Positions 17,087 to 25,018 of a stretch of DNA of 64,000 nucleotides are shown here, in pieces. The notes under the pieces are model-generated. The model worked only from the letters and a program-made list of their open reading frames with translations, had not been told where the DNA came from and searched no databases. Numbering within the stretch: the stretch's first letter is position 1; every line of letters begins with the position of its first letter. Origin of the DNA: Eledone cirrhosa (lineage: Eukaryota); the NCBI GenBank assembly GCA_964016885.1, contig OZ024740.1, positions 265,794,001 to 265,858,000 of the forward strand. Reading direction: 5' to 3'. The position numbers were made by a program, and so were the translations under genes.

Positions 17087-17715
17087 TAAAAGACGTAAAA
17101 TAAGAAAATATCTTTTAAAAAAATTTTTTTTTTTAATTTTTTACTTAAATACTTAAATTTTCACTCCAACTAATTAGTTTCTGCAATGGGATAAAGACAG
17201 TTACGTAATCCAACTGTCGAGAATTCATTGCGTCATCAGGGAGTCTATTCTCAGTTAAGTCTCCAGGCAATGCGCGGACACTGGCGGCTCATATAAAAAT
17301 AATAATAATTCGGTAGATCGAACAGCTGGCGAGGACTGGATTCTATGTACCGAAATTCTCAATGCTTCAGGTCAAATGGCCGATTCTAAAGAATCAATCA
17401 CGTGACACAGAGGCTAGTTAGAAGGAATGGGATGGTAAGATGACTGACGCCTACTAACACCCCAAAAAATTTTTTTAGAAGTGGTTTTGGCAAGTTTGCT
17501 CGACAAATCAGTTCTCTGGAGATAAATTTAGATAATTTAATATATCAACTAACATAAGCGCACAGATGCACGCCCATGCTAGCAAATACACAGGTTATGT
17601 CATAGTACCTAGGTGGTTCAATGCAGGAGAATGCAGAACAATAATATAAAAGACGTAAAATAAGAAAATATCATTTAAAAAGAAAAAAATTTTTTTTTAA
17701 ATTATCTCAAAATAT
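17087..17715 (-). mobile_element. ~560-bp retrozyme-like element with terminal direct repeat and HHR
   Basis: taaaagacgtaaaataagaaaatatc at 17087 and 17647; homologous to 24373-25018 on the opposite strand. Confidence 0.8.
17163..17244 (-). ncRNA. Type I hammerhead ribozyme
   Basis: Minus strand: actcc-CTGATGA-c-gcaatg...(gacagtt/aactgtc hairpin)...cattgc-a-GAAA-ctaattag-TT-ggagt. Confidence 0.88.
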
Positions 17716-18796
17716 ATATGTATATATATATAAATATATATATATCTATATTATATATATATATATATATATGTATATATATATAGATATATATATATCT
17801 ATATTATATATATATATATATATACATATATATATATATATGTATATATATATAAATATATATATATCTATATTATATATATATATATATATATGTATAT
17901 ATATATATAGATATATATATATCTATATTATATATATATATATATACATATATATATGTATATATATATAGATATAGATATATATCTATATTATATAAAT
18001 ATATATATATATATATATATATATATATATGTATATATATATATATATATATCTATATTATATATATATATATATATATATATGTATATATATATATATA
18101 TATATATTATATATATATATGTATATATATATATATATATATCTATATTATATATATATATATATATATATATATGTATATATATATATATATATTATAT
18201 ATATATTTATATGTATATATATATATATAATATATATATATATATATATATATGTATATATATATTATATATATATATAATATATATATATATATATATA
18301 TATATGTATATATATATTATATATATATATAATATATATATATATATATATATATATATATATGTATATATATATTATATATATATAATATATATATATA
18401 TATATATATATATGTATATATATATTATATGTATATATATATATATGTATATATATATATATTATATATATATATATATATATATATATATATGTATATA
18501 TATATATAGATATATATATAGATATATATATATATCTATATCTATATTATATATATATATATATATATATATAGATATATATATAGATATATATATAGAT
18601 ATATATATAGATATATATATATATATATATATATATATATAGATATATATATAGATATATATATAGATAGATATATATATATAATATAGATATAGATATA
18701 GATATATATCTATATACATATACATATATATATATATATATAATATATCTATATATATATCTATATACATATATATATATATATATATATATACAT

Positions 18797-19252
18797 GTAA
18801 GTATGCATGTATACGTACATACATATATGTATACAGACGTACAGTAGCATGCACATATATATATATATATATATACACATATACATACATATGCATACAG
18901 GTACACATACATATATGCACGTATCAGTTTAGCGGCGCTTATTATAAAGTCGCTTTGTTCGTTTGTAAACAAACTGAACAGCCTGAATTTATGCCATACG
19001 GTGTTAAGGCAACCACGTCACCTTTTTGTTCAACACTGACACAGGAACGATGTACTAGTTTCATTTTGTTTCAATTTATCGTTTTCGGTATGCCTGACCG
19101 ATTTAACTCACTCAATATGCAAATTAGGCTGCTCAGCCGTTAATTTTCATAAGGAAAGTATATACTTTCGAACGTTCAACTATCTGGCAGATGGGTAAAC
19201 GGTGCTGATGATAGCTAACAAGCTTGAAACTAGTACATCGTTCCTGTGTCAG
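18797..19252. mobile_element. Diverged copy of the 15-kb HHR family with an internal inversion
   Basis: 18797-19063 is colinear with 15029-15312; 19064-19252 is inverted; 28-bp inverted repeats at 19036-19063 and 19225-19252. Confidence 0.8.
19198..19242 (+). ncRNA. Canonical minimal type I hammerhead ribozyme
   Basis: aacggtg-CTGATGA-t-agct-aaca-agct-t-GAAA-ctag-TA-catcgtt. Confidence 0.9.
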
Positions 19253-23151: not shown

Positions 23152-23617
23152 AAAATATTAAAAAATAATGAATAAAACAAGGAAACACTTCCTTATATTA
23201 AACAAAAAATGTTCATTATTTAACGATCGTTTCTAGGATATATATGTGTTAGAGTTGGCATGCATATTCAACAGATCTATGTACAAAATTATACAAAATT
23301 ATACAAACTATCAAAATTAAATATACATACCAACACATATATATGCCGTCTTCAGAAATAATGAATATGCATGCCAACTCTAACACATATATATCCTAGA
23401 AACGATCGTTAAATAATGAACTTTTTTTGTTTAATATAAGGAACTGTTTCATTGTTTTATTCATTATTTTTTTAATATTTTATCTTGACTCCGTATTCCG
23501 TTTATCTTTCACCGAAAGTGATTTTTCCTTGCATCTCTTCTTTCCATGATATCCGGATTACATTGAGTTCTTCATACGGATTGGACACTACCGTAAACTC
23601 TTGGTAGATTTATCTAC
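23152..23617. mobile_element. Inverted pseudo-LTR copies plus ATGAAGA module (23367-23617 is the reverse complement of ~59654-59905)
   Basis: 23152-23365 is the reverse complement of 22879-23090; a partial forward copy and the module seen at 59656 and 61155 follow. Confidence 0.8.
23212..23365 (-). ncRNA. Type I hammerhead with expanded stem II (inverted copy)
   Basis: Reverse complement of the 22879-23033 motif with core and stems intact. Confidence 0.83.
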
Positions 23618-24372
23618 ATATATAGATATATATACATATATATAGATATACATACATATATATAGATATGTACATATATAGATATATATACATATATATA
23701 GATATACATACATATATATAGATATATACATATATAGATATATATATATACATATATATAGATATATATACATATATAGATATATATATATACATATATA
23801 GATATATATATACATATATAGATATATATACATATAGATAGATATATATACTTATAGATATAGATATATAGATATATATATATATACATATAGATATAGA
23901 TATATAGATATATATATATACATATAGATAAATATATATATATATATATACATCTAGATATAGATAAATAGATATATATATATACATATAGATAAATAGA
24001 TATATATATATATACATATAGATATAGATATATAGATATATATATATATATACATATAGATATAGATATATAGATATATATATATATATACATATAGATA
24101 TAGATATATAGATATATATATATACATATAGATATAGATATATAGATATATATAGATATAGATATATAGATATATATATATACATATAGATATATAGATA
24201 TATAGATATATATATATACATATAGATATATAGATATATATATAGATATATATATATACATATAGATATAGATATATAGATATATATATATACATATAGA
24301 TATAGATATATATAGATATATAGATATATATATATACATATAGATATATATATATAGATATATATATATATA

Positions 24373-25018
24373 TGACGGGATGTTTCTCTACACCTTCTTC
24401 GGAAGATGTATCTACTCCATTCCAGAAACTAATTAGTTGGAAGTGATATTTTAGTAAGTAAGTTAATTTTATAATTTTCTTATCTTACGTCTCTTATATT
24501 ATTGTTCTGCAACCCCATGCATTGAACCACAATGTTATTAAGACAAAACCTATATATTTGCTAGCATCGCTATGCATTTGTATGTATATATATGTTACTA
24601 GATATAAATTCTTTATTATTATCTCCAAAATATTTGTCGAGCAATACTGGCCATGACTGCTGCTACTGTAGTCGGCTGGCCGCTGTCTTATTAACAACCC
24701 ACTTTCCACCGATTGACCTCGATGTCACGTGTTCGATTCTTTTTGAATTTGCCACAGACACAGAGGCAGTAATTTTCTCAATGGCTAGGAAGTAAGTCCA
24801 CGCTTATCTATTTCCTATTCAATGATTTATTTTTTAATAAGCTTCCAGTGTCCTCGCTTTGCCTGGAAACTTATATGAGAATTGACTTTCCTGATGACGG
24901 TATGTTTCTCTACACCTTCTTCGGAAGATGTATCTACTCCATTCCAGAAACTAATTAGTTGGAAGTGATATTTTAGTAAGTAAGTTAATTTTATAATTTT
25001 CTTATCTTACGTCTCTTA
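24373..25018 (+). mobile_element. ~522-bp retrozyme-like monomer with ~125-bp terminal direct repeats
   Basis: 24373-24497 matches 24895-25018; the upstream repeat begins inside the HHR core (TGAC). Confidence 0.85.
24885..24966 (+). ncRNA. Type I hammerhead ribozyme with a C(UUCG)G-capped stem II extension
   Basis: actttc-CTGATGA-c-ggtatg...tacaccttc TTCG gaagatgta...cattcc-a-GAAA-ctaattag-TT-ggaagt. Confidence 0.87.

Follow-up and report, generated by a model that had tools for sequence, protein, structure and literature searches.

A likely retrozyme family in Eledone cirrhosa, probably copied in trans by a Penelope-like enzyme

A 64,000-nt stretch of the Eledone cirrhosa genome (assembly GCA_964016885.1, contig OZ024740.1, positions 265,794,001 to 265,858,000 of the forward strand; here called the window) contains two copies, A and B, of a short repeat with a hammerhead ribozyme. 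We consider this repeat a likely retrozyme, copied in trans by the reverse transcriptase (RT)-endonuclease (EN) of a Penelope-like element (PLE), probably of the Hydra clade, from a predicted self-cut and probably circular RNA monomer (rough probability 0.6). That PLEs mobilise retrozymes from circular RNA is a proposal dating to 2014-2020. The present family gives it testable parts: two start sites known to the base (E1 and E2), each with an adjacent hairpin, a strict E1+E2 rule for head-to-head insertions, and variants pointing to a single template.

Unit positions are numbered from the first base past the predicted hammerhead cut. The two copies are organized as follows:
24372..25021, plus strand: copy B, a 5'-truncated single arm with unit positions 456-522, then a full 522-nt unit, then positions 1-61; ends at E1, in (TA)n
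24439..24960, plus strand: full subfamily-B unit of 522 nt between two predicted cuts; its longest ATG open reading frame (ORF) has 67 aa
17084..17696, minus strand: copy A, a 5'-truncated single arm with unit positions ~26-558, then 1-82; ends at E1, in (TA)n

An earlier reading of this DNA (the original prediction) had described each copy as a monomer plus terminal redundancy, and this is what we find. In copy B the unit measures 522 nt and the terminal repeat 124 nt (123/124 identical); in copy A these values are ~560 and 57 nt, with 86% identity in the repeat and slippage in an A/T tract. The 5' end of copy A lies near 17696, ~19 nt farther out being junction sequence, and (TA)n fields surround both copies. 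The homology of A and B, formerly placed at the hammerhead and its flanks, is real and reaches beyond these parts. They align with 69% identity across 539 nt (BLAST E=5e-44), hence homology spans the entire unit. A and B represent two subfamilies of one abundant non-coding repeat family; the two window copies themselves are likely dead ends.

A search pattern for the hammerhead matched 9,032 times genome-wide and its reversed control 0 times. DNA searches of the own genome returned 2,304 candidates with the B query and 1,748 with the A query, and the best 40 scored candidates were 97-99% identical. Full units measure 502-571 nt and fall into many subfamilies, alignable end to end; no unit has an ATG ORF of more than 67 aa. 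Arms hold up to four ribozyme junctions. A circle of the unit is predicted to be stable and self-paired (z=-3.8 for B, z=-4.6 for A, against 25 dinucleotide shuffles). Small tandem units with one hammerhead each and no RT/EN ORF bear out the earlier description as a retrozyme-like, non-autonomous element. Long arrays of at least 12 A/B-family units (G000:C1:152492894-152499277) and of at least 8 units of R3, a second repeat described below (82116311-82120242), are candidate source loci. The unit also carries the motif GTCACGTG, which we take to be E-box-like and a candidate internal promoter element; a B-box-like word of B was not conserved in the other subfamilies.
24724..24731, plus strand: GTCACGTG motif of B, conserved in all subfamilies aligned
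17399..17406, minus strand: GTCACGTG motif of A, from sequence

Among 299 unique complete arms (210 loci; arms touching locus edges were excluded), 262 end at E1 or E2, and 233 of these 262 adjoin TA/TC repeats. Several of the other 37 ends are alignment breaks in homopolymers. Pattern-derived loci alone give 182 of 210 arms. E1 and E2 lie at unit positions 61 and 181 in B and 82 and 204 in A, ~120 nt apart. 5' ends are spread over the unit, with an enrichment in its first tenth. With 3' ends at two constant positions and scatter confined to the 5' ends, the copies are not circularly permuted, and the survey for permutation that had been proposed came out negative. TA loose ends at 24499 and 24616 are present in contigs of runs X1-X3 (one sample, run kind not on record).

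Head-to-head doubles, 105 in number, follow a strict rule. Both ends could be classed in 81 (an end was unclassed in 24), and 76 of these combine E1 with E2, compared to three E2+E2 and two E1+E1 (p=2e-17 against 50%); for pattern-derived loci the figure is 52 of 56. Two more retrozyme-like repeats of this genome, R2 (457-467 nt) and R3 (483 nt), have different hammerheads and sequences unrelated to the A/B family (loci L161:5300-6430, L199, L214, L325). They show the tail hairpin and the E1+E2 rule as well, with E1/E2 at 86/191 in R2 and 80/188 in R3, so the spacing over the three families is 105-122 nt. Matches of a hairpin pattern (~1,286) were mostly R2/R3. The hairpins of the window copies are:
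24504..24527, plus strand: tail hairpin 1 of B, GUUC-UGCA-loop-UGCA-UU-GAAC, a few nt past E1
24623..24641, plus strand: hairpin 2 of B, CUC-CAAA-loop-UUUG-UC-GAG, a few nt past E2 (here 24619)
17616..17639, minus strand: tail hairpin 1 of A, from sequence
17499..17521, minus strand: hairpin 2 of A, with upper-stem substitutions compared to other A copies

A bulged hairpin a few bases past E1 is thus common to three hammerhead repeats of unrelated sequence, and it covaries (UGCA/UGCA, UACA/UGUA, UGG/CCA); the A/B family has a second one directly past E2. Two 3' ends delimiting a tail, an inverted 5'-truncated partner and a microsatellite target together form the insertion footprint of EN+ PLEs, which autonomous PLEs of this genome also leave. 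PLE insertion has been described as starting reverse transcription at two adjacent internal sites, with both target strands cut and extended by a predicted dimer (PMC11167929), and inverted PLE insertions as having the tail at one end only (PMC8557442, PMC3846280).

The hammerhead itself is predicted from sequence and covariation. There is one complete copy per window copy:
24877..24966, plus strand: complete type I hammerhead of B (sequence, covariation); GAGAA 24877-24881 with pseudoknot partner UUCUC 24906-24910, stem I 24885-24890/24961-24966, CUGAUGA 24891-24897, long stem II 24898-24946, GAAA 24947-24950, palindromic helix III CUAAUUAG, predicted cut between GUU and G after 24960
24372..24444, plus strand: truncated upstream hammerhead of B, broken off inside CUGAUGA in the catalytic core and without the 5' strand of stem I; predicted cut after 24438
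17163..17252, minus strand: complete type I hammerhead of A (sequence, covariation); GAGAAU 17252-17247 pairing with AUUCUC 17224-17219, stem I 17244-17240/17167-17163, CUGAUGA 17239-17233, GAAA 17181-17178, predicted cut between 17168 and 17167

Across 24 representatives of the hammerhead, paired cells make up 92.7% and 53 cells show double changes, a value equalled by 0 of 500 shuffles, and structures slid along the alignment reach 35-45%. A second pairing test gave up to 95.2% with 47 double-change cells (0/500 shuffles as high). Stem I reads ACTCC/GGAGT in A and ACTTTC/GGAAGT, with one U.G pair, in B. Most subfamilies have 5 bp here; the types ACTTCC/GGGAGT, ACTTCC/GGAAGT and ACTTTC/GGAAGT have 6 bp. 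Each of these 6-bp types has the additional base on both strands (one small group changed on one side only), so the indel is compensatory, as the original prediction had it. Its second claim, unrelated stem II inserts amounting to a swapped domain, held only in so far as both inserts fold and that of B is capped by C(UUCG)G. Throughout the family stem II consists of a 6-bp helix, an internal loop of 6-7 by 7 nt and a variable hairpin (~40-55 nt in all); the A and B inserts share this architecture and 28 of 49 aligned positions (hand count), and intermediates exist in other subfamilies. A and B are therefore two points of a covarying continuum; a domain swap is not supported and the former headline drops out. 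GAGAA, 5' of stem I, is predicted to form a pseudoknot with UUCUC of the stem II loop; it has at least 5 bp in 232 of 279 copies. In 25 representatives 93.6% of its cells are paired, and one base pair switches from G-C to A-U, a double change seen in three related rows. Such stem I-stem II pseudoknots are predicted in ~40% of hammerheads and are required for speed in other hammerheads (PMC3088659). Marks of the PLE type are present, namely the additional base after A9, G10.1-C11.1 and the palindromic helix III; the first and last of these have been reported for PLE hammerheads, which are thought to work as dimers (PMC4209133). Helix II, being two helices of ~40-55 nt, does not match the 7-8 bp of the PLE minimal hammerhead. 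Rfam gave no hammerhead hit at gathering score and, in E-value mode, only microsatellite/miRNA noise among the best 150 of 192 rows.

Variants within single insertions bear on the kind of template that was copied. Sixty rare variants, here those present in at most two insertions, occur in every one of the 2-5 copies of an insertion (among 114 insertions), 20 of them in at least three copies. One unit must thus have been copied repeatedly, for which a circle would most simply be the route, and the fixed internal start sites are likewise compatible with a circular template. The junction is crossed at least twice by 90 of 299 arms (59 of 210 when pattern-derived); it is unchanged in 328 of 350 cases, and loss at the cut was seen in 0/350, large deletions being such as the pattern would miss. 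At polymorphic sites tandem units agree in 45/47 comparisons in B (18.6 discordant expected) and in 336/340 in R3, and the two arms of a double in 37/40 and 175/176, respectively. Divergence within arms (1.25%) does not differ from that between arms (1.45%; 29 doubles, p=0.66), and none of the 56 doubles compared mixes subfamilies. In a comparison aimed at A-to-I editing scars, changes from A to G make up 15 of the 60 shared variants and 27 of the 282 that are not shared (post hoc Fisher test, p=0.002); T to C changes make up 14 of the 60, which gives no strand bias (p=0.58).

That single insertions were later expanded to arrays by unequal crossing-over, the satellite route (Li et al. 2026), is very improbable. 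In its favour, it would homogenise units, and some old long arrays are internally diverged; it explains neither the first redundancy nor variants common to inverted arms, and the equal divergence within and between arms speaks against it, too. A PLE could also have inserted read-through transcripts of a tandem array that stay linear and for the most part uncut, with rare cutting and no circles. For the PLE PAc, use of unprocessed RNA in vitro and insertion of ribozyme mutants have been reported (PMC11167929), long arrays exist as possible sources, and homogeneous sources would match haplotypes likewise. Yet through a purely linear cycle the number of units can stay or fall but not rise, and unit-specific variants would be transmitted, while rare variants fixed in all 3-5 copies and in both arms require a one-unit bottleneck. 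Moreover, in 18 of 23 arrays (three rows being one old locus) the units are each other's nearest copies. We regard this explanation as rather unlikely.

A small excess of 5' ends lies at the predicted cut. Of 33 TA-flanked 5' ends within an 18-nt window, 10 start at this cut (hand tally, first 100 of 103 rows; p=0.002-0.04), which suggests that cutting occurs and that some templates are linear. Three of the ten carry a full unit with an uncut junction, as read-through would have it. The other seven are stubs with one end precisely at the cut and the other at E1 or E2, as expected if the template were a linear cut monomer on which the RT jumps from the 5' end back to a 3' end. Such template jumps have been proposed for PLEs (PMC3846280) and would yield an equal one-unit bottleneck, but jumps between molecules would disturb the clean junctions and the haplotypes that stay constant across them. 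This makes the jump quite improbable in our view.

The genome is rich in PLEs, and their families were searched for an autonomous partner of the unit. The search covered the Neptune-like family of the window, Pfam GIY-YIG matches (50 of 150 places) and, by protein queries, 20 and 30 loci of two Hydra-type families. None of the RT + GIY-YIG ORFs belongs to the unit. Helix III variants (35 point mutants only) and relaxed hairpin patterns led to no partner; one such pattern gave 830 matches against 1,027 in the control, i.e. noise. A pair spaced by 3.5 kb turned out to be two separate insertions, and an unrelated match of a relaxed hairpin pattern consists of ~1,887-bp tandem units in at least 50 copies (G000:C1:176748652-176844684). 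With the partner not found, the copies might be taken for merely truncated pseudo-long terminal repeats (pLTRs) of an autonomous PLE, the case that the original prediction had set against itself. Their boundaries are indeed Penelope-like, PLE copies are mostly 5'-truncated, and the search extended to the first 100 pattern rows and the best 150 protein hits. However, the unit has no such ORF, another unit lies upstream of it and arms cross the junction up to four times. In addition, a tblastn search of 170 loci (L001-L090, L175-L254) found PLE coding sequence joined to the unit in sense only at L226, a mid-unit composite. We hold this case to be highly unlikely. The composite (L226/L275, G000:C1:82324185-82327212) contains an inverted Hydra-type 3' end and a Hydra-type ORF end joined directly to the unit in sense; it is flanked by the Hydra end 1 on one side and by the E2 of the unit on the other, and is explained by a template switch as well as by insertion beside an older copy.

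Hydra-type PLEs of this genome have the CxCX5C linker, which marks the Hydra clade (PMC8557442), and tails of 70-133 nt that open with RCTC...GAGY hairpins directly past the first end. In four families these hairpins, when compared by eye, appear to resemble that of the unit in shape and position, with covariant base pairs; a hairpin script recovered one of the four. Some of these PLEs also have long-stem-II hammerheads with a palindromic helix III. A Hydra-clade element is probably the driver. Within the window, a Hydra-type fragment at 10460-11870 (minus) has a hammerhead at ~10505-10625 with a stem II of ~90 nt and a palindromic CAAUUG helix III. Endonuclease fragments of further, different Hydra-type families lie at 62258-62656 (minus; in this family the ends are 89 nt apart), 19253-19345 (plus), 29047-29672 (minus) and 31438-31810 (minus). 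A 5'-truncated Neptune-like PLE at 49210-50841 (minus) comprises the RT end, a CxxxxCxxC linker, a GIY-YIG domain (PF01541) and its own short hammerhead. Its family is very young, with 32,527 first-look candidates, ends 62 nt apart and end1/end2 doubles; its pLTR is unrelated to the A/B unit. Several other Neptune-like families (L125-L154) have long 3' untranslated regions and no canonical hammerhead by pattern. Fragments of LINE-type RT, AP-endonuclease and zf-RVT were seen at 13198-15177, 34556-37797, 40836-42282 and 26529-27221 (all minus) and at 54493-55743 (plus).

Several points weigh against copying from one circle by a Hydra-clade enzyme. In subfamily A agreement is lower, with 492/552 for tandem units and 163/196 for arms, all arm discordances being confined to the A/T tract and the edge of E2; polymorphic sites are, moreover, linked and not independent. 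Partly shared rare variants (282) exceed the fully shared ones (60), and when the partner arm was compared to the best other copy in 56 doubles, it was the closer of the two in only 25 and the farther in 20. Matching haplotypes would also result from homogeneous linear source arrays, or if a single source were active at any one time. A PLE used uncleaved RNA in vitro (PMC11167929), and eight of nine Xenopus retrozyme dimers were reported as uncleaved (bioRxiv 10.64898/2026.07.22.740005). As to the ribozyme, the covariation of the pseudoknot amounts to a single pair; below G10.1-C11.1 there is a C.A mismatch in the core, and the triplet is GUU. No inspected PLE 3' region resembles the unit, in a survey that is incomplete, and the hairpins of the inspected PLEs read ACTC/GAGT or GCTC/GAGC, not GTTC/GAAC.

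Taken with these reservations, copying from a probably circular monomer may proceed as follows. A tandem source copy would be transcribed through two hammerheads, each with a 5-6-bp stem I, a two-helix stem II of ~40-55 nt and the loop I-loop II pseudoknot. These are predicted to cut between GUU and G, for which there is the weak genomic trace given above, and the palindromic helix III would favour dimers. The monomer would then be closed into a circle. A PLE protein presumably nicks (TA)n, and the cDNA starts internally at E1 or E2, where the bulged hairpin a few bases 3' of each start likely positions the protein. The insertion is then a single arm, as with both window copies, or a head-to-head double, for which each target strand would be primed at its own site, one at E1 and the other at E2. 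Synthesis continuing across the closed junction would finally yield the terminal redundancy and multi-unit arrays. A more specific version we offer only tentatively, at somewhat below even odds. In it, a Hydra-clade PLE dimer starts at the two hairpin-marked sites of one circular retrozyme RNA and runs round from both (TA)n strands, unrelated ribozyme RNAs parasitise the enzyme via the hairpin pair alone, and the pseudoknotted long-stem-II hammerhead is a subtype missed by Rfam.

The link of retrozymes to PLEs is already in print, as are tails and inverted copies of autonomous PLEs. The mechanism of retrozyme mobilisation remains to be shown according to a recent preprint (bioRxiv 10.64898/2026.07.22.740005). 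In the literature searched, which left subscription papers and preprint supplements outside, we found neither the E1+E2 rule together with single-template evidence for a retrozyme, nor end hairpins common to unrelated satellites, nor the long-stem-II pseudoknotted hammerhead form. With this family the nature of the PLE tail, the cause of head-to-head insertion and the circularity of the template become assayable, and it adds a natural long-armed, predicted pseudoknotted hammerhead.

Compared to known systems, the unit appears to have the sequence-level features of a metazoan non-LTR (long terminal repeat) retrozyme. In common with those (PMC7229834; bioRxiv 10.64898/2026.07.22.740005) are the non-coding unit in tandem arrangement with its single type I hammerhead, the range from monomers to multimers, the predicted well-paired circle, the co-occurrence with PLEs and the proposed mobilisation by them. 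Its size of 520-570 nt is above the 150-450 of PMC7229834 and within the 51-972 of the preprint. It differs by a far longer stem II, the predicted pseudoknot and the lack of a sister pLTR among those found, and is known here from genomic sequence alone; two fixed 3' ends and E1+E2 doubles have no description in the accessible text of the two sources. Its hammerhead shares the additional base after A9, G10.1-C11.1 and the palindromic helix III with PLE minimal hammerheads (PMC4209133), and has in addition an A before G12 and the two-helix stem II. From the pseudoknotted hammerheads of PMC3088659 it differs in that its predicted pseudoknot uses the internal loop of stem II, and from the catalogued ones in matching no Rfam model. 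The non-autonomous Chlamys PLEs, e.g. MRC1, are likewise PLE satellites with multicopy head-to-tail insertions, but these generally resemble the 3' end of an autonomous family and are mostly without hammerheads (PMC8557442). EN+ PLE insertions (PMC11167929, PMC8557442, PMC3846280) have in common with the unit the two internal RT starts, the one-ended tail, the head-to-head arrangement, 5' truncation and an AT-rich target; the unit is distinguished by having no RT/EN ORF and by a tail of ~120 nt instead of 30-40. The families of Hydra-clade PLEs inspected, finally, are not homologous to the unit in sequence, and the base of its hairpin is GTTC/GAAC versus RCTC/GAGY, but the (TA)n target and hammerheads with a palindromic helix III are common to both (PMC8557442), and the Hydra-type elements of this genome have, like the unit, two ends, tails of 70-133 nt and, as compared by eye, a bulged hairpin past the first end.

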